Shown: positions 5,430 to 24,464 of the stretch, in pieces
Layout of the letters: every line of letters starts with the position of its first letter
How positions within the stretch are numbered: position 1 is the stretch's first letter
NCBI GenBank assembly: GCA_037142715.1
Contig: JBAXAD010000003.1
Span: 738-64,737 of the forward strand
DNA length: 64,000 nt
Direction of reading: 5' to 3'
Source: Paludibacter sp.
GTDB taxonomy: Bacteria; Bacteroidota; Bacteroidia; Bacteroidales; Paludibacteraceae
The notes under the pieces: generated by a model
Told to the model about the DNA's origin: nothing
The model's input: the letters and a program-made list of their open reading frames with translations, nothing else
Database searches by the model: none
Translations under genes and position numbers: made by a program

Positions 5430-6146
5430 ATGCCCTACCGAAGACTACCCAATACTGATCAAGCGCGTTTGCGTGCATTACGTACTGCTATTCAGCAATT
5501 TGACAAACAAGAATTTGGAAATCTGGTTATTTCTTATAAAACCATTTTAGATGCCAAAACCTATCTCAACGTGTTTGAGAAACAATTAAATCAATACCAA
5601 ATTACTTTAGATAGTCAAGTGTCTGCTAATAAGAAGTATCAGCAAATAGTACATAATGCCCGTTTATACATTTCTCATTTCATTCAGGTGTTAAATCTTT
5701 CGGTTATACGGGGCGATATAAAAAAAGACCACAAACTTTTTTATCATTTAGATCCTAACCTACATACAGTTCCCGATTTAAGTACTGAGGCTTCATTAAT
5801 TCAATGGGGAAAAAGTATAATTGAAGGCGAAAATGAGAGAATTAGGAATGGAGGATTACCGATCTACAATCCCGCAATTGCCAAAGTACAGGTTCATTAT
5901 GAGGTATTTAAAGAATACAAATCCACTCAAAAAATTTACCAAAACACTACCAATCGTAATTGGGAAGACTTGGTAAGTTTGCGTGAAAAAGGGGATGTCA
6001 TTATTCTGAATATTTGGAATCAAGTAGAGGCGAAATTTAGATCTGAACCACCCTATATTCGCATGATAAAATGCCAAACTTTTGGTTTGGTTTATTATTA
6101 CCGAAAGGGCGAGCCTGAGTTGGTGAAGGATGATGTAGTAGTTTAG
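5430..6146 (+). CDS. Conserved Bacteroidota hypothetical protein
   Basis: 238-aa ORF with a helical, protein-like sequence. The MPYRRLPNTD N-terminus is recognised as typical of a Bacteroidota family; no functional motif identified. Confidence 0.75.
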   Translation: MPYRRLPNTDQARLRALRTAIQQFDKQEFGNLVISYKTILDAKTYLNVFEKQLNQYQITLDSQVSANKKYQQIVHNARLYISHFIQVLNLSVIRGDIKKDHKLFYHLDPNLHTVPDLSTEASLIQWGKSIIEGENERIRNGGLPIYNPAIAKVQVHYEVFKEYKSTQKIYQNTTNRNWEDLVSLREKGDVIILNIWNQVEAKFRSEPPYIRMIKCQTFGLVYYYRKGEPELVKDDVVV

Positions 6147-6165
6147 TTTTGCTCAGAGCTAAACC

Positions 6166-6765
6166 TTATTCAATGGTTCTCAATGGCGTAAAAATTTTAT
6201 CTAGCGACACATCATTCTCATCGTACGGAATTGATTTGAGTAGTTGAAAGTCGAAACCAATGCCCCATTTCGGAGCTTTGGATTGATTAAAATACCTGTC
6301 ATAGAAACCTTTACCACGCCCTAGTCTGTTCTTTTTCAAGTCGAATGCTACTCCAGGTACCAATATCAAATCAGTATCACCGCAATAACTTTCTTCAGAA
6401 TATGGTTCCCAAATGCCCTTATATCCTTTTCTCATTTTTTCGATGGATGTAAACTTCTTAATCTCCATTTTCTCACCTATTACAATTGGCAGTAAAATGC
6501 ATTTTTTGTCTTTCCACTCGGAAATAAATTCTTGCGTTGGCAGTTCATCACTTGAAGACCAATAGATTAATATAGATTTTGCAGCAATAAATTCTGATGT
6601 TCCTGCTATTTTTTCAAAAACTACAACGGCATCTTTTTGTTTTTGGTCATCGCTGATTCTATTTTTTAATTCCTTTATTTGTCCCCGAATTCTATTTTTC
6701 TCAATAGAAATTTTTTCTGTCTTCCCTCCGAAAATTCCATTTATTATTTTTTTTAATTTGCTCAT
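6166..6765 (-). CDS. ygfA: 5-formyltetrahydrofolate cyclo-ligase
   Basis: LILVPGVAFDLKKNRLGRGKGFYDRY signature. Confidence 0.93.
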   Translation of the reverse strand: MSKLKKIINGIFGGKTEKISIEKNRIRGQIKELKNRISDDQKQKDAVVVFEKIAGTSEFIAAKSILIYWSSSDELPTQEFISEWKDKKCILLPIVIGEKMEIKKFTSIEKMRKGYKGIWEPYSEESYCGDTDLILVPGVAFDLKKNRLGRGKGFYDRYFNQSKAPKWGIGFDFQLLKSIPYDENDVSLDKIFTPLRTIE

Positions 6766-6886
6766 ATTGAGTTATTTATAAAATTCCAAAAAATACTTCT
6801 TATTGTTGTAAAACTACAGAATTATTTCCAAATCCACAACTGACGATGTTAATCTTTCGCCAAATGAAACTTTTTTCAATAAAAGC

Positions 6887-15366: not shown

Positions 15367-16347
15367 TTAATTACTTTTATTAATCAGATTTACAACCACT
15401 TTCACTATCATGTTCATGTTTTTTTCTTCGGTGCGGCTTTCGGCAATCATAAGCGTAAGTGCCACCAGCGTGTTGTTTTCAATTAATTTTGTTCCATTTT
15501 CACGGTAAAGAATGTTGTTTTTATCCAGAAACCACAAAAGCAAAAAGGCTGCAATTCGTTTATTACCATCGCTAAATGAGTGATTTTTAGTTACTAAATA
15601 AAGCAACATGGCTCCTTTTTCTTCAATACTCGGATAAAGCTCCTCGCCATCAAAGGTTTGATAAATAGTATTTATAGAACTATCAAACGATTCATCTTTT
15701 TCGTTGCCAAACAAACCACCACTTCCAAACTTATCTTTCAGCAAAGTGATAACAGTCATGGCTTCGTCATAAGTTGCTCTAAATTTGGTTGTTTCACTTG
15801 TGTTCCCAACTTCAAGTTGTTGATAGTCATATCTATCAAGTATATCTAAACCATATGTATAATCGGTAATTACTCGCAACAAACCGGAAGTTTCATCTGC
15901 CGACAATTCATGATTCTGAATAACATTGGATAGCAATTTTATGGTTTTCTTTAAATCTTCCAATTGTTCCAACTTTACTTTTTGGTTTATAGCATAACCC
16001 TTTACAAGATAGTCTTTTAATATACTATTTGCCCAGATGCGGAATTGAGTTCCACGGATAGATTTTACGCGGTAGCCTACTGAAATGATGACATCTAGAT
16101 TATAATATTTTGTTTTATATGTTTTTCCATCTAAAGCAGCTGTCAAGTATTCCTTGACAGCTGAATCTTGTCCTAATTCCCCTTCTTTGAAAATATTGTT
16201 TATGTGTAAGCTTACATTTTGTTTAGATGAATCAAATAGCTCTGCCATTTGTGCCTGTGTCAACCAAACTGTGTCTTCTTCCAATCGAACATCCAATGCT
16301 GTACCGCCGTCAGGTGTGCTGTAAATGATAATTTCTCCTTTGTTCAT
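15367..16347 (-). CDS. RhuM-like N-terminal domain fused to Fic/Doc domain
   Basis: VWLTQAQMAELF...YNLDVIISVGYRVKS (RhuM-like) plus Doc-type motif HSFSDGNKRIA. Confidence 0.85.
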   Translation of the reverse strand: MNKGEIIIYSTPDGGTALDVRLEEDTVWLTQAQMAELFDSSKQNVSLHINNIFKEGELGQDSAVKEYLTAALDGKTYKTKYYNLDVIISVGYRVKSIRGTQFRIWANSILKDYLVKGYAINQKVKLEQLEDLKKTIKLLSNVIQNHELSADETSGLLRVITDYTYGLDILDRYDYQQLEVGNTSETTKFRATYDEAMTVITLLKDKFGSGGLFGNEKDESFDSSINTIYQTFDGEELYPSIEEKGAMLLYLVTKNHSFSDGNKRIAAFLLLWFLDKNNILYRENGTKLIENNTLVALTLMIAESRTEEKNMNMIVKVVVNLINKSN

Positions 16348-16363
16348 GGTCGGATTTTTTTTC

Positions 16364-18469
16364 TTATTTCTTCTTCCAAACGCTCACTTCAGTCAAATGT
16401 TTTTCCGAAATTCTTGACGATTTACGAAGTGTCAATACCAAATCAAAAGGTTTATTTTCCAATGTAAAATACTTATCCAGAATAGTTTGTATTCCTTCGA
16501 ATGAAGTCAACGGCTCACCATCTTGTTTGAAACCACCTGGCCAATGTGCTCGTTTTGTTTCGTTGCCGTCCCAATTATAAGTGGAGGTGATAATTAAAAT
16601 ACCATTTTCATTCAAGCGGTCTTGAATGTTTTTCAAAAACAGTATTGGGCAAATCAATTCTTCCAATAAATTGGGCACAATAATCAAGTCGTAACCGGTG
16701 TAAATAGGTTTCAGGTTATTGGCGTCGGCTTGCATAAAAAGAATATTGTCCTTACCGCTTTCAAGACTCATTTCCGACAAAACCACGTCTCGATAAAAAA
16801 CCAATTCGCCTTCATCTTTTACAATATAGCGAATAAAACCTTTTTCCTGCAACTGAATGGGCATGCGAATAAAACGTGTCGACAAATCGAGCGCCGTCAC
16901 TTTTTCGAAATGTTGCGCAAGTTCAAAGGCGAGTCGTCCTGTTTCTGCATTCAAATCCAGTACGCTGATATTCTTATTATTACCAACACTTTCAATGGCT
17001 ATTTTGGCCAATTGTTTGGAGAAATTTTCTGTATCAGTAAATGCATCACCCCAGTTTGTTTCGCACGAATTTGCTACTTCCCGATCTGTTTCATATTCAT
17101 CGTTGTGTAAAATTAGCGGCATTTCCGATTCCACCATTCTGAATCCAGCATGTTGGTAGAAATGTCTACGGAATGCATAGCGTGCATGACTAGCAGCTTC
17201 ATTTCCAGTGGAAATCCACGAACCTCCTTTGATTATATTGTGTTTTCCGTCAAAAGTTGGTGCAGTAAAATCGTCGTAAAGTGGATGCACTTTGAAGCCA
17301 GGATAGCCGGTAATTGGCGTTTCGGTCCATTGCCAAACGTTGCCTACCACATCGTAAAAATCACCTACTGGGAACGAATCAACTGGGCAAGGTGAAGTAA
17401 AATGCTCCAAATTAATGTTTCCCGGCGCAGTTTCCCATTCTAGAACGTCCGTTACTTTTACGTGCTCTGATAGTCGTTTCCATTCAGCTTCTGTTGGCAG
17501 GCGCAATGTTTTGCCAGTTTGCTTACTTTTCCAGTTGCAAAAGGCTTTTGCTTCCAAATAATTCACTTCTGCAGGCCAGTTCCAGGGCATTTCTATTTCC
17601 TCTGCCACCAAACGTAGGCGATATTTTCTGTTTTTTATTTGCCAAAATAACGGCATTTCGGCTTGTTTAAATGTCTTCCAATTCCAGCCTTCTTCTGTCC
17701 AAAATTCTTGTGCGTGATAGCCACCAACTTCAACGAATTCTAGAAATTCTCCGTTGGAAATAAGGTATTTTGACGTTTTGAAATTTGAAACCTTTTCCGT
17801 GTATTTTCCATATTCATTGTCCCATCCATAAAGCGGATGTTCGAAAGATTTTCCCAAATGCATTTCAGCGCCTGGAACTGGCAATAATTCATTTTTAGGA
17901 GCTGCTCCATTTTCAGTACAGATTTCTCCAAATTTTCCTGCAACCACTTCGTCCAAAGGTAATTGGCGAATAAGAACCGATGAAGTTTCAAGATGAATGC
18001 GTTCATGTTCAATACCCATCATGATAATCCATAGTGGGTCATTCCACGTAATGGGAAGGTTTAATGTGGCATTTTCAATCACCTCCAAAATCACTTTTTT
18101 GGCTTTATTTCTGTAATCACGAACGGCATCAACACTTGGCCAATTGTAATGTTTTTCGTTCAAATCATCCCAGCTCATTTCGTCTACGCCAATAGCAAAA
18201 ATGGACTCAAATTCGGGATTTATTCGTTCCTCCAGCATTTTTGCCAGAAACAATTTATTGATAAAAAACACTGCTGTATGTCCAAAATAGAAAAGCAGCA
18301 CATGGCGCAATGGGTCGCCACGATGGTAGAATACCTCATCGGATTTTAGCTGGGTGTACAGCTTTTCGTCCACTGCCCATGTTTTCTCAAAATAGTTGAT
18401 AATTTCCCGACGTTTATCTTCGGGTTTTCCATTCCGCAAATCAATTGTTTTGGTCAATAAATCTTGCAT
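16364..18469 (-). CDS. ovoA: 5-histidylcysteine sulfoxide synthase with C-terminal methyltransferase-like domain
   Basis: DinB_2-like N-terminus with HERIHLE (Hx3HxE iron-binding; 17987-18007), FGE-sulfatase-like domain with HPLYDDF and FYQHAGFR, then a Rossmann methyltransferase-like C-terminus. Confidence 0.9.
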   Translation of the reverse strand: MQDLLTKTIDLRNGKPEDKRREIINYFEKTWAVDEKLYTQLKSDEVFYHRGDPLRHVLLFYFGHTAVFFINKLFLAKMLEERINPEFESIFAIGVDEMSWDDLNEKHYNWPSVDAVRDYRNKAKKVILEVIENATLNLPITWNDPLWIIMMGIEHERIHLETSSVLIRQLPLDEVVAGKFGEICTENGAAPKNELLPVPGAEMHLGKSFEHPLYGWDNEYGKYTEKVSNFKTSKYLISNGEFLEFVEVGGYHAQEFWTEEGWNWKTFKQAEMPLFWQIKNRKYRLRLVAEEIEMPWNWPAEVNYLEAKAFCNWKSKQTGKTLRLPTEAEWKRLSEHVKVTDVLEWETAPGNINLEHFTSPCPVDSFPVGDFYDVVGNVWQWTETPITGYPGFKVHPLYDDFTAPTFDGKHNIIKGGSWISTGNEAASHARYAFRRHFYQHAGFRMVESEMPLILHNDEYETDREVANSCETNWGDAFTDTENFSKQLAKIAIESVGNNKNISVLDLNAETGRLAFELAQHFEKVTALDLSTRFIRMPIQLQEKGFIRYIVKDEGELVFYRDVVLSEMSLESGKDNILFMQADANNLKPIYTGYDLIIVPNLLEELICPILFLKNIQDRLNENGILIITSTYNWDGNETKRAHWPGGFKQDGEPLTSFEGIQTILDKYFTLENKPFDLVLTLRKSSRISEKHLTEVSVWKKK

Positions 18470-18472
18470 ATT

Positions 18473-19000
18473 CTAAACTAGTTTTTTGTGTAAATATATT
18501 TTTTTCATTACGAAAGTTCCGTTCCCGTCCGCTTTCGTCTTTGTTTGTTCAATATTGGCAATTTGCTCAAAACCAACCTTTTGATATAATGAAATGGCTC
18601 CCACGTTTTCATCCCAAACCCGAATAAAAGCATCTGTGAAAATCGATTTATCAACTGTTTGGAAAAATTCATTCAATAATTTTGTCCCAATTCCCATACC
18701 ACGTGCTGATTCTGTCACCATCATTTCTGCCACGTATACGCATTTATCAAGCGGAAAGTTTTTGTAAATCTCAGGTGGAACGGCCTTGTCAAGTTTTAAT
18801 GGACAGCACAAAATTGCACCCATTACCTGCAAATTCTCAACCGCAAGTAACGCATATCCTTCCGTCAGAATTTCATCAATATATTGATTTAACACTACTG
18901 TATCAATGTATTGTTTTGACAAACCAGTTGAGAAAGCTTCAATGTATAACGCAATTAAGTCTTTACGCTGTTTGGAATTGTTGATTTTGACAATTTGCAT
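18473..19000 (-). CDS. GNAT family N-acetyltransferase, translationally coupled to ovoA
   Basis: Acetyl-CoA motif ARGMGIGTKLL and N..AISLYQKVGF. Stop codon lies 3 nt before the ovoA ATG. Confidence 0.88.
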   Translation of the reverse strand: MQIVKINNSKQRKDLIALYIEAFSTGLSKQYIDTVVLNQYIDEILTEGYALLAVENLQVMGAILCCPLKLDKAVPPEIYKNFPLDKCVYVAEMMVTESARGMGIGTKLLNEFFQTVDKSIFTDAFIRVWDENVGAISLYQKVGFEQIANIEQTKTKADGNGTFVMKKIYLHKKLV

Positions 19001-19034
19001 GCAAACAATTTTCTTTTTGATATTGACGTGACTG

Positions 19035-19042
19035 CAAAATTA
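19035..19042 (-). promoter_or_regulatory. Sigma-A -7 element for GNAT-ovoA operon
   Basis: TAATTTTG(C) on the minus strand, 35 nt upstream of the GNAT ATG. Confidence 0.55.
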
Positions 19043-19077
19043 GACAATTCACGCTTATGATTAGCTATTTCCAACGA

Positions 19078-19119
19078 ATAAAATCAAAACACCCATACAT
19101 TGATATAAATGCATGGGTG
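19078..19119 (-). terminator. Intrinsic terminator after DUF2271 genes
   Basis: CACCCATGCATT/AATGTATGGGTG stem followed by TTTTGATTTT on the minus strand. Confidence 0.6.
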
Positions 19120-19166
19120 AGAGTAAGATATTAGACTTTTTTATTGACAGTATAACATTTTTTCAA

Positions 19167-20285
19167 TTAATTAGGTGTCCATTTTAATGAAATGTTCGAA
19201 AAACTTGAAACATTTGCAGGGGCTTGGGTTTGTGCTACAGCTCCTTTTGTAAAATTGAAGTAAGAAAAATTTCCTGTACCATTTCTATCTGTTAATTCCA
19301 TGCAGATTCGGTATGTTCCATCCTCTACTATTGCCCCACTCACATTTGTACCATTCCAAGAACATGTGCGCGTAGCATAAATCGATTGTGTAGCACCTGT
19401 TGTAGCATTGGTTGTGTTTCCGGTTGAATTATAAATCCAGTAGGTCAAATCTGCTTTTCGTGCAGCAGCGAATACAAGCAATGATTTGACAAATACTCCC
19501 GAATTATTTTCTATCCAAAAAGCTAGTACATGGTTGGGTGCATAATTTCCTCCAGCAGTGCTAGTTGCTGTACTTATTGTAAAAGTACCTGCTGTTTTAG
19601 GCGGAACTGCAGTAGTTGTCATCGTAATTTCATTGCCATAAGTTGTTCCAATCAAATTTGTGGCATAAGCCCTTAAATAATAAGTGGTTGTGGCCGTAAG
19701 TCCGGTAACGCTACTGATATAAGTTCCAATTGTTGTTCCTTCAGAAGTTTTGCTATTGGTAATGGTTGGATTTGTTGTAGTACTCCAGCAAACTCCTTTT
19801 GCAGTTAATGTTGAACCTCCATCACTTGTTATATTTCCGCCAGATGTTGCGGTGGTTGCAGCAATATTAGTTGTTGCAGAAGTTGTCAAAACCGGAGCAG
19901 TAGCCTGCAAAGTGGTAAATGTAAACTCCTCACCATAGGAAGTTCCTTCGCTGTTTGTTGCATAAGCACGTACATGATAAGTTGTGCTTGCCTTTAATCC
20001 GGTTAACGAACTTGTAAATATTCCCGAGCCTGATGAATTTGATGTTTTAGAATTGTTAATTGTAGGATTGGCGGCTGTATTCCAGCAAACGCCACGTTCT
20101 GTTATACTTGCACCACCGTCTGAACTTATGTTTCCACCCGAAGTTGCAGTTCCTGAAGCTATTTCAGTAACAGCAGTAGTGGTTAACACAGGAGCTAGTT
20201 TTGTACTTGTGCATGCTGCAAAAACTAAAACAGCAATTACGAATGATACGGTTTTTAGAATTGAAAATCTACTGTTTTTTTTCAT
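19167..20285 (-). CDS. Lipoprotein with two fibronectin-III-like repeats and a C-terminal DUF2271-like domain
   Basis: Lipobox VFAAC, two ~95-aa repeats (APVLTT...YxxRAYATN..GT.YG), then PNHVLAFWIENNSGVFVKSL...WNGT...DGTY. Confidence 0.72.
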   Translation of the reverse strand: MKKNSRFSILKTVSFVIAVLVFAACTSTKLAPVLTTTAVTEIASGTATSGGNISSDGGASITERGVCWNTAANPTINNSKTSNSSGSGIFTSSLTGLKASTTYHVRAYATNSEGTSYGEEFTFTTLQATAPVLTTSATTNIAATTATSGGNITSDGGSTLTAKGVCWSTTTNPTITNSKTSEGTTIGTYISSVTGLTATTTYYLRAYATNLIGTTYGNEITMTTTAVPPKTAGTFTISTATSTAGGNYAPNHVLAFWIENNSGVFVKSLLVFAAARKADLTYWIYNSTGNTTNATTGATQSIYATRTCSWNGTNVSGAIVEDGTYRICMELTDRNGTGNFSYFNFTKGAVAQTQAPANVSSFSNISLKWTPN

Positions 20286-20374: not shown

Positions 20375-20917
20375 CTATAATGGCATCCAATTGGAAGTGA
20401 TATTCGTGAAATTAGCTCCATTTGCTGGTGTAATGGTTTGATTAGCTGTACCTTTCACAAAAGTGAACGAGGTGTTTGGGCCAGCTCCCGAATTTTCTGT
20501 CATTTCCATCCAAACTTTGTAGGTACCGTCAGCCACTACTTTTTTATTGATATCGGTTCCATTCCAAGTTGCATAAATGGTGCCATGACCATCGCGGGTA
20601 GCTCCTGTAATGGCGTCTGTTTTATTGGAACTAGAAACCGATCTCCATTTGATCAAATCGCTAACTCGCACAGCAGCTTTTACATAAAGCGTTTTTACAA
20701 ACTTATCTGAATTGTCAGTCACCCAGATGGCTACAACATTTTTTGGAGCATATTGACCACCAGACGAGCTAGTTGTGGCAGAAATCAGAAGGCCTGATGT
20801 AACAGTCGGTACTGCATCTGATGAAGTAACTGCGGCAGTTGTACAACCAAAACCGACAAATGATATTATAGCTAGTAGCAATGAAAAACCAATTAAATTC
20901 TTTCTTTTTTGACTCAT
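20375..20917 (-). CDS. DUF2271-like lipoprotein
   Basis: Lipobox GFGC, then PKNVVAIWVTDNSDKFVKTL...DAITGAT...WNGTD...DGTYKVWME. Paralogous to the C-terminus of the downstream gene. Confidence 0.75.
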   Translation of the reverse strand: MSQKRKNLIGFSLLLAIISFVGFGCTTAAVTSSDAVPTVTSGLLISATTSSSGGQYAPKNVVAIWVTDNSDKFVKTLYVKAAVRVSDLIKWRSVSSSNKTDAITGATRDGHGTIYATWNGTDINKKVVADGTYKVWMEMTENSGAGPNTSFTFVKGTANQTITPANGANFTNITSNWMPL

Positions 20918-22275: not shown

Positions 22276-23383
22276 TTAATCAGGAAATTCCATCAAATAC
22301 GCTTTGATAAAAGCATCGATATCGCCATCCATAACTGCCTGAACATTTGAAGTTTGGTAGTTGGTTCGGTGGTCTTTCACGCGGCGGTCGTCAAACACGT
22401 AACTACGAATTTGCGAACCCCATTCAATTTTCTTCTTGCCAGCTTCCACCTTTGCAGATGCAACGCGCCGTTTGGCAAGTTCCATGTCGTAAAGCATTGA
22501 TTTCAAGAGTCGCATCGCATTGTCTTTGTTGCCAAACTGCGAGCGGCTTTCGGTATTTTCAATCGCTATTTCCTTCATTTCGCCTGTTTCCTCGTCGCGG
22601 TATTTGTAATGCACCCGCACACCGGTTTCCACCTTGTTCACATTCTGTCCACCTGCACCCGACGAGCGGAAAGTGTCCCAGGTAATATCGGCCGGATTGA
22701 TGTTGATTTCAATGGTGTCATCCACCAATGGCACCACATAAACAGAAGTAAATGAGGTCATACGCTTGCCTTGTGCGTTAAACGGAGAAACCCGCACCAA
22801 ACGATGCACACCGTTTTCGCTCTTGAGGTAACCATAGGCCATTTCGCCTTCAATTTGCATGGTAACTGATTTGATACCAGCTTCTTCACCTTCCTGAATG
22901 TTGGTAATTTCGCACTTGTAGCCTTGTCGTTCGCACCAACGTTGGTACATTCTGAACAGCATCTGCGCCCAATCTTGCGCTTCGGTACCACCGGCACCGC
23001 CCACAATTTTAATAACCGCCCCCAACTTGTCCTCTTCGTGCGAAAGCATGTTCTTCATTTCCAGCGTTTCCACCAATTCCATGGCCAGTCGGTAAGCTTC
23101 GTCCACTTCCTCTTCGGTCATGGCTTCCTCGCGGTAAAAATCGTAAGTCAGTTGGAGTTCATCAACGGCAGTTTTCACTTCATTGTATCCAATCACCCAG
23201 TTTTTCAGTTCTCTCACTTTACGCATTTGGATTTCAGCCGCTTTTGCATCGTCCCAAAAACCAGGCACTTGCGTGCGTAACTCTTCTTCTTCTATCTGTA
23301 TAAGCTTCGTGTCCACGTCAAAGGTACCTCCTCAGTGCATCCTCGCGCTCCAACACATTTTTCAGTTGGTCTATCGTTATCAT
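22276..23383 (-). CDS. prfB: Peptide chain release factor 2, with programmed +1 frameshift
   Basis: ORF1 is MITIDQLKNVLEREDALRRYL then TGA (ATG at 23383). The +1 frame continues DVDTKLIQ... with the SPF and GGQ motifs. Confidence 0.96.
23317..23332 (-). other. prfB frameshift signal: internal SD AGGAGG, TAC, slippery CTT TGA C
   Basis: Minus strand reads AGG AGG TAC CTT TGA C. Confidence 0.95.
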
Positions 23384-23447: not shown

Positions 23448-24464
23448 TTATTTTATTTTCAGACTTTTAATATCTTCTTCAATTTCTTTTAAGCTTAGCT
23501 CTCTTTCAATTTCTTGTTGTACAACTTTGTATTTTTGAAATTCATCATTCGATTTTTCCAAGGCTTTATCGTGGCTTATTTTTCCGGCATGGTCTAGTAA
23601 TTCTCTTCCGTTCAATTGAAGAATTGCATCCAACCTTTGCACCCAATCCGCCATGTACATCGGTGTTTGCTGCTGTGCCATTGTCTCGGCAAAAGCCAAA
23701 TACTGTTCTACCAATAAACCGAGCAACTTAATTTCATCTTCTTTTAGATAGTTTTTAGCAATGCTGATATCTGCTTTCTTTACTGACAATGAGCTTTTTT
23801 TGTCATAGGATTGCATTCCCATTAATGGCAGCGAGGCATCTACTCTTCGATAAACCAATTCGGCAGCAGTTTGTTTACTTATTGCCCATAACAGTTTGTT
23901 TTGTATTACTTTGAAGAATCCAATCGTCCTTTCATCTTTTGCATCATAATCAATGCTAGTTGTATAAATATCTTTAATTTTTTGGTAGAAAAACCGCTCC
24001 GAAATTCTAATTTCACGAATGCGCTCTTGCAATTCGATAAAATAATTCATCGAATTGCCCGATTTAAAACGGTCGTCGTTCAACGTAAAGCCTTTGATAA
24101 TGTATTCTTTAAGCCTTTGCGTAGCCCAAATACGAAATTTTGTGCCTTGCTGTGATTTAACACGATAACCTACCGATATAATTACATCGAGATTGTAAGC
24201 ATTTACTTCGATTTCTTGTGTCTTACCTGCTATAGCACCGTGTTGAGTGGTTGTTCGGAATTTCCGAACAACCACTTTTTCCTCAAGTTCTCCTTCTTCA
24301 AACACATTTTTAATGTGTTCACTAACAGTTGCTTTCGATTTCTGAAATAATTCACAGAGTTGACTTTGACTCAGCCAAACGCTTTCTTCTTCGAGTTTAA
24401 CATCAATTTTAATGCTACCTTCGGGGTTTTGATAAATGAGAATTTCGGAATTTGGTTCGGTCAT
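23448..24464 (-). CDS. rhuM: Virulence RhuM family protein
   Basis: VWLSQSQLCELF, YNLDVIISVGYRVKS, ERIREIRISERFFYQKIKDIY and QNKLLWA motifs. Confidence 0.88.
   Translation of the reverse strand: MTEPNSEILIYQNPEGSIKIDVKLEEESVWLSQSQLCELFQKSKATVSEHIKNVFEEGELEEKVVVRKFRTTTQHGAIAGKTQEIEVNAYNLDVIISVGYRVKSQQGTKFRIWATQRLKEYIIKGFTLNDDRFKSGNSMNYFIELQERIREIRISERFFYQKIKDIYTTSIDYDAKDERTIGFFKVIQNKLLWAISKQTAAELVYRRVDASLPLMGMQSYDKKSSLSVKKADISIAKNYLKEDEIKLLGLLVEQYLAFAETMAQQQTPMYMADWVQRLDAILQLNGRELLDHAGKISHDKALEKSNDEFQKYKVVQQEIERELSLKEIEEDIKSLKIK

Follow-up and report, generated by a model that had tools for sequence, protein, structure and literature searches.

A GNAT gene and ovoA form one transcription unit in a Paludibacter-like genome

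Within a 64,000-nt stretch of contig JBAXAD010000003.1 from Paludibacter sp. (hereafter, the window), a gene for a GNAT N-acetyltransferase (P0002) lies directly upstream of ovoA, whose product (P0001) joins a 5-histidylcysteine sulfoxide synthase to a C-terminal methyltransferase-like domain with an atypical S-adenosylmethionine (SAM) loop. The host is a 4.26-Mb Paludibacter-like metagenome-assembled genome (MAG) that is 92.9% complete, and the window's contig is designated C3. GNAT and ovoA are one transcription unit, composed as follows.

18473..19000, minus strand: GNAT N-acetyltransferase gene (P0002), 175 amino acids, ATG start and TAG stop
18470..18472, minus strand: spacer of exactly 3 nt from the GNAT stop to the ovoA start, the junction reading TAG-AAT-ATG
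16364..18469, minus strand: ovoA (P0001), 701 amino acids
P0001 residues ~1-450: N-terminal part, 5-histidylcysteine sulfoxide synthase
P0001 residues ~459-700: C-terminal part, methyltransferase-like domain
16943..16969, minus strand: SAM-loop (motif I) codons of the methyltransferase-like domain, residues 504-512 (LDLNAETGR)

P0001 scored 700.7 bits against TIGR04344 (ovoA_Nterm, cut-off 400) and 288.5 bits against TIGR04345 (ovoA_Cterm, cut-off 170, model positions 1-242), and its residues 4-700 matched the structure of OvoATh2 (8KHQ) with an E value of 2.9e-241 (806 bits). The HX3HXE iron motif (H155-H159-E161) and the catalytic tyrosine (Tyr398, equivalent to Y406 of OvoATh2) are both retained. 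As in the canonical bifunctional OvoA proteins of Erwinia tasmaniensis and Hydrogenimonas thermophila (OvoATh2), DinB_2, FGE-sulfatase and class I methyltransferase domains are combined in one chain. In contrast to these proteins, the window OvoA carries DLNAETGR instead of DxGCxxGR at the SAM loop and Glu instead of Arg at position 604, and it falls within a distinct clade of Bacteroidia sequences (SH-aLRT 98) with no more than 49% identity to canonical representatives.

The acetyltransferase is an orthologue of 5-thiohistidine N-alpha-acetyltransferase

Pairing of a GNAT with OvoA is already in the literature, having been described in 2025 for a related Bacteroidota. The enzyme characterised there, 5-thiohistidine N-alpha-acetyltransferase (5THNAT; A0A1R3T2J6) of Proteiniphilum saccharofermentans, is a GNAT encoded beside ovoA, and it acetylates 5-thiohistidine at the alpha-amino group with acetyl-CoA as donor (Liao, Lim, Suryatin Alim and Seebeck, ChemBioChem 2025; PMC12631010). 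According to that paper, 5THNAT operates in vitro with a kcat of ~2 per s and a Km of 58 uM for 5-thiohistidine; histidine, 2-thiohistidine and ovothiol A are not substrates; Tyr116 is the catalytic base, and Glu119, Arg153 and Trp155 are strictly conserved residues of the acceptor pocket. Table S1 of the paper lists >50 ovoA-linked 5THNAT homologues, several Paludibacter entries among them (PMC12631010). A 2026 JACS paper names 5THNAT as the only known thiohistidine-tailoring enzyme beyond the canonical pathways, besides the ATP-grasp enzymes that it describes itself. Apart from the ovothiols, N-acetyl-5-thiohistidine is the first tailored form of 5-thiohistidine to have become known.

P0002 matched Pfam PF00583 (Acetyltransf_1) at an E value of 2.3e-9, together with related GNAT models, while an NCBIfam search of the protein returned generic GNAT families only (RimI-like, ArsN1-like and AAC-like), all under cut-off. 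The P. saccharofermentans 5THNAT gene was located in that species' genome (G007, a single 4.4-Mb contig) by means of three exact peptides from the paper's supplement. P0002 shares 37% identity with its product over 169 residues (E 2e-37), and on reciprocal search each protein was the sole match of the other in the two genomes. Residues Y89, E92, R127 and W129 of P0002 align with Y116, E119, R153 and W155 of 5THNAT. Conservation was examined among 213 homologues, drawn from 63 genome loci, from another 30 loci (29 of them in the genus Proteiniphilum) and from 119 metagenome proteins. Each of the four signature residues is retained in 211-213 of the 213, and all four are invariant in alignment A1; the acetyl-CoA loop R-G-x-G-x-G/A, present in P0002 as R100-G-M-G-I-G105, is conserved as well. 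The closest solved structures to P0002 are Naa50 entries (6YZZ, 3TFY), and Naa50 is also reported as the nearest structure for 5THNAT (PMC12631010). P0002 is thus an orthologue of 5THNAT.

The two systems share the GNAT fold, the order and strand of GNAT followed by ovoA, the Tyr/Glu/Arg/Trp signature, the acetyl-CoA loop, the Naa50 structural relationship, a partner OvoA of the same clade (here termed Asn-type, after the Asn at the first Gly of its SAM loop) and a C-S lyase that is unlinked in both genomes. They differ in that P0002 has no counterpart of the ~25-residue N-terminal extension of P. saccharofermentans 5THNAT, in the intergenic gap (3 nt in the window, as against ~80-145 nt in Proteiniphilum loci), and in gene context, as the LemA, DUF2207 and transcarboxylase neighbours of the Proteiniphilum locus are absent from the window, whose host is the Paludibacter-like MAG. 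A first-pass annotation of the window had pointed to a 5-thiohistidine acetyltransferase from Proteiniphilum and had suggested that the window GNAT might extend that group instead of being its first case. The precedent is real, and the suggestion agrees with the present comparison, in which every sequence-level feature of 5THNAT that was tested was found in P0002. The same annotation was right to see in the GNAT a tailoring enzyme of the OvoA pathway; its proposed substrate, 5-thiohistidine or the sulfoxide, is narrowed by the published enzyme to 5-thiohistidine.

GNAT and ovoA are linked across several Bacteroidota families

A pattern scan with the GNAT alone, limited to one genome per species, yielded 63 loci spread over Paludibacter, Proteiniphilum, Draconibacterium, Prolixibacteraceae and Porphyromonadaceae. 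An ovoA gene lies directly downstream on the same strand in 60 of them, and all 54 of these genes that are uncut by a contig end are full length. GNAT-ovoA adjacency is far beyond chance, and on comparison of neighbours only these two genes were common to related loci. The other three loci fit a dependence of the GNAT on ovoA. At one, in a Paludibacter MAG (L045), the GNAT is frameshifted (6001-6524) and ovoA is missing; at another, in a Prolixibacteraceae MAG (L050), the GNAT is intact, with ~300 nt of ovoA fragments behind it (6570-6869); at the third (L049), no ovoA was found within the remaining 950 nt of the contig. L045 and L050 look like decay stages of a GNAT-ovoA module. Within the genus Proteiniphilum, the GNAT was present in 45 of 62 genomes. 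Among 400 evenly sampled Bacteroidia genomes, only four besides the window's own had a full-length OvoA. In the tree of OvoA proteins, the window sequence is sister to the OvoA of a Paludibacter MAG (87% identity), and the Asn clade looks like one in which GNAT linkage is ancestral.

A C-S lyase encoded elsewhere would complete the pathway

Genome-wide searches for pyridoxal phosphate (PLP)-dependent lyases (PatB, TIGR04350; Cys_Met_Meta_PP, PF01053; Aminotran_5, PF00266) returned no PLP lyase on contig C3, consistent with the first-pass remark that no OvoB-like enzyme lies in the window. This does not amount to a gap in the pathway, as the same searches recovered a PatB-type C-S lyase on contig C161 (G000:C161:4411-5559) that scored 486.9 bits on TIGR04350 (cut-off 340) and matched OvoB of E. 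tasmaniensis (5Z0Q; PMC8433421) over its full length (E 3.5e-78). The C161 protein, a full-length homologue of OvoB (itself a PLP-dependent C-S lyase), is not linked to the operon and stands nearer to PatB and cysteine-S-conjugate lyases of generic type (4DGT, 6QP3). An unlinked PatB-type lyase was likewise found in four of five other 5THNAT genomes, P. saccharofermentans included. OvoB is described in the 5THNAT paper as a lyase of broad specificity (PMC12631010), so that supply of the lyase in trans would be the ordinary case. The C161 protein is a candidate for sulfoxide cleavage.

In the proposed pathway, the N-terminal non-haem-iron domain of OvoA would combine L-histidine, L-cysteine and O2 into 5-histidylcysteine sulfoxide; a PLP-dependent C-S lyase encoded elsewhere, of which the PatB/OvoB-type protein of contig C161 is the candidate, would release 5-thiohistidine; and the GNAT would then use acetyl-CoA to acetylate the alpha-amino group of this product, yielding N-alpha-acetyl-5-thiohistidine. 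The locus is most probably a GNAT-ovoA operon of the 5THNAT/OvoA type, serving the formation of N-acetyl-5-thiohistidine (probability roughly 0.85). Here the activities and the product in vivo are predicted from features that were directly observed, namely gene identities, orthology, retention of the catalytic and signature residues, and synteny that is conserved across loci. So read, the locus adds a well-supported member from the Paludibacter lineage to the 5THNAT-OvoA systems.

Several points weigh against this assignment. The published case for 5THNAT itself, in the available text, consists of in-vitro assays only (PMC12631010). The Paludibacter GNATs, P0002 included, are known from sequence alone, and at 37% identity a shift in substrate specificity is conceivable. 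The lyase call is one of homology to a broad housekeeping family that also occurs in genomes without OvoA (control list). Finally, three of the four other genomes with full-length OvoA in the even sample, all complete (G243, of the same family, G328 and G274), contain no 5THNAT homologue anywhere, so that acetylation is not obligatory for an Asn-type OvoA. The OvoA proteins of these genomes sit at three separate places on the tree amid GNAT-linked sequences, which shows repeated loss of the GNAT. The GNAT depends on ovoA, but OvoA does not depend on the GNAT.

A more radical alternative is that the GNAT has nothing to do with thiohistidine chemistry, being for instance a RimI-like protein acetyltransferase or a resistance enzyme that stands beside ovoA by chance. 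The names returned by the generic searches would suit such an enzyme, but all of those hits were under cut-off, and the idea is hard to reconcile with linkage in 60 of 63 loci from several Bacteroidota families, with the reciprocal sole match to the characterised 5THNAT, with retention of all acceptor-pocket signature residues, or with the observation that a missing ovoA goes with a frameshifted GNAT (L045) or with a GNAT lying beside ovoA remnants (L050). Already disfavoured, this explanation is very improbable.

The methyltransferase-like domain carries a clade-wide SAM-loop change

In the published view, methylation (to ovothiol A) and acetylation are competing branches, which is an assumption; some 5THNAT partner OvoAs are listed there without a methyltransferase domain (PMC12631010). 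The window OvoA has such a domain: residues 436-700 of P0001 are homologous to the stand-alone 5-thio/selenohistidine N-pi-methyltransferases OvoM and OvsM (9BXL, 9BXH; E 5.6e-41 and 7.6e-32), from which the window domain differs in being fused to the synthase and in its clade-specific SAM-loop change. Where the canonical loop reads D-x-G-C-x-x-G (LDVGCAIGR in 8KHQ), the window has D505-L-N507-A508-E-T-G511 (G507N, C508A). Asn occupies the position of the first Gly in 54 of 54 full-length GNAT-linked OvoAs, in P. saccharofermentans OvoA, in four representatives of the clade at 50% identity and also in the four full-length OvoAs of the even Bacteroidia sample. In the domain alignment it is found in all 60 clade rows (56 GNAT-linked OvoAs and the four clade representatives), as against Gly in 97% of 39 canonical representatives across the family, in which the following residue is Cys in 95%. 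Further clade changes are Cys508 to Ala or Thr in most rows, H472 to Asn or Met, and Glu at position 604 in 93% (canonical Arg in 74%).

Other residues of the domain are invariant. Asp505, Gly511, Asp594 and the beta2 acid Asp528 occur in 100% of the clade, and either position 581 or position 582 always bears an acid (D582 in the window). The window protein thereby retains D528, D582 and D594 as its other SAM-contact acids. Median dN/dS was 0.087 for the methyltransferase-like domain and 0.066 for the synthase domain over 35 pairwise comparisons, which are not mutually independent. The methyltransferase-like domain is under purifying selection about as strong as that on the catalytic domain and, judging by this conservation, clearly functional in some way. 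The OvoATh2 structure paper and the ovoselenol preprint give no SAM-contact residues, so the argument from the SAM loop is built on conservation and on general knowledge of class I methyltransferases.

The proposal of the first-pass annotation that acetylation replaces methylation is not established by these data, as the domain passes TIGR04345, is under purifying selection and shows the same Asn in clade members without the GNAT. A check that it had suggested, co-occurrence of the GNAT with an altered OvoA, came out in part: the GNAT is ovoA-linked in 60 of 63 loci, but the Asn SAM loop also occurs in OvoAs without a GNAT. Restriction of the Asn-type loop to OvoAs with a linked GNAT was accordingly rejected, as G243, G328 and G274 carry Asn without any 5THNAT homologue. 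The one point that goes beyond the published account (PMC12631010) is that the SAM-loop change of the partner OvoA is clade-wide and under selection. It makes the assumed competition by methylation something that can be tested, by asking which thiol is actually made by these anaerobes.

Three models for the domain are compatible with the sequence: competing branches, dedicated acetylation, and acetylation followed by methylation. The clade domain may have changed function, either no longer methylating 5-thiohistidine or acting on N-acetyl-5-thiohistidine, a tentative proposal with somewhat worse than even odds. It draws on the fixed replacement of Gly by Asn in the SAM loop, on Ala or Thr for Cys508 and on Glu for Arg604, all of them under strong purifying selection. 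If it holds, carriers would make N-acetyl-5-thiohistidine alone, or N-acetyl-ovothiol, and not the published mix with ovothiol A. Under dedicated acetylation, the C-terminal domain of the clade would no longer bind SAM or methylate and would be kept for, e.g., dimer architecture, with N-acetyl-5-thiohistidine as the sole end product. Consistent with this are the uniform replacement of Gly by Asn, the changes at Cys508 and Arg604, and the apparently ancestral GNAT linkage of the Asn clade; the methyltransferase domains form the dimer core in the OvoATh2 structure, a reason to retain an inactive domain, and the 5THNAT partners listed without the domain fit as well. However, the window domain reaches 288 bits against a cut-off of 170, the acidic and Gly positions named above are strictly kept, and the constraint, ligand loops included, exceeds what a scaffold should require. 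Moreover, the Asn is kept in three clade members with no GNAT in the genome. Asn is the best substitute for a Gly with positive phi, and SAM binding in the absence of the first Gly occurs in some class I methyltransferases. Loss of methylation to the benefit of acetylation is, on balance, unlikely.

In the sequential model, the GNAT would acetylate 5-thiohistidine and the methyltransferase-like domain would then methylate the product to N-alpha-acetyl-ovothiol A. The available text of the 5THNAT paper leaves room for this order, since it shows only that 5THNAT rejects ovothiol A (PMC12631010). Strictly conserved clade changes (N507, E604 and H472 to Asn or Met) are easier to explain by a new substrate than by lost function, and tight coupling of the two genes, with their 3-nt gap, is in keeping with consecutive steps. 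Against this model, an Arg-to-Glu change would be unexpected for a more anionic substrate, and clade members without the GNAT keep the same domain features. Methylation of the acetylated thiol is distinctly less probable than an inactive domain.

OvoA-type proteins in other gene contexts

Two of the Asn-type OvoAs that occur without a GNAT have other neighbours. In G274, ovoA (L124:6221-8329, minus strand) is divergent from a gene for a KamA-family radical SAM aminomutase (L124:9030-10361, plus strand), which might provide another thiohistidine tailoring step. In G328, ovoA (L123:6630-8738, minus strand) has the following genes around it.

L123:8851-9522, plus strand: class I methyltransferase
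L123:5994-6473, plus strand: Lrp/AsnC regulator
L123:3525-5825, minus strand: MetE

Replacement of the fused OvoA domain by this stand-alone methyltransferase was considered and found unsupported, as the protein is MM_2633/UbiE-like and not OvoM-like. Separately, four Bacteroidia genomes (G362, G393, G368 and G287; loci L115-L118) encode OvoA-like synthases of ~450 amino acids with no methyltransferase domain. These share ~42-43% identity with the window OvoA's N-terminal domain (tblastn) and resemble EgtB-IV entries (8VIH, 8VIG).

Upstream signals and flanking genes

The features on either side of the operon are as follows.

19035..19042, minus strand: promoter-like motif TAATTTTG, fitting the Bacteroidota -7 consensus TAnnTTTG, ~35 nt 5' of the GNAT ATG
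19090..19119, minus strand: terminator-like hairpin of 12 pairs, then TTTTGATTTT (T run), between the upstream gene (19167-20285) and the operon
19167-20285, minus strand: gene for a 372-amino-acid protein with no Pfam match, upstream neighbour
20375-20917, minus strand: DUF2271 protein gene, upstream neighbour
15367-16347, minus strand: gene for a RhuM-family protein with a Fic/DOC domain, beginning 16 nt past the ovoA stop

The layout given in the first-pass annotation (promoter-like TAATTTTG, GNAT, 3-nt gap, ovoA) was confirmed in the window, without enrichment of the motif: as a bare pattern, TAnnTTTG occurred 102 times in the window versus 93 expected from shuffles. A sigma-70 promoter scan of 16000-19400 was uninformative (10 sites versus 9.6 expected). 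Since the pattern is at chance frequency, a promoter role for TAATTTTG is suggestive by position only. The motif is placed directly past the hairpin and T run that close the upstream gene, an arrangement that fits a separate transcription unit for GNAT and ovoA.

The flanking genes comprise rpiB, an AIRS-domain protein gene, proC, the Fic/RhuM gene, the DUF2271 gene, a transglutaminase-like protein gene and prfB. Their membership in the system was rejected, as only GNAT and ovoA are kept across loci. The genes for the 372-amino-acid and DUF2271 proteins are common to ~18 related Paludibacter loci and not to other 5THNAT loci, a pattern indicative of lineage synteny outside the GNAT-ovoA module. 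The Fic/RhuM gene 3' of ovoA is present in only one of 63 related loci and is not kept in relatives; a second RhuM-family gene lies 7 kb from the first (23448-24464, minus strand), and both genes could be insertions, mobile or related to defence, on the flanks of the region. The prfB gene (22276-23382, minus strand, ATG at 23382) contains a programmed +1 frameshift site, AGGAGG TAC CTT TGA C, at ~23330-23317, which explains why the open reading frame finder lists only a GTG-started piece of 346 amino acids; frameshifting of this kind in prfB is ordinary and well known.

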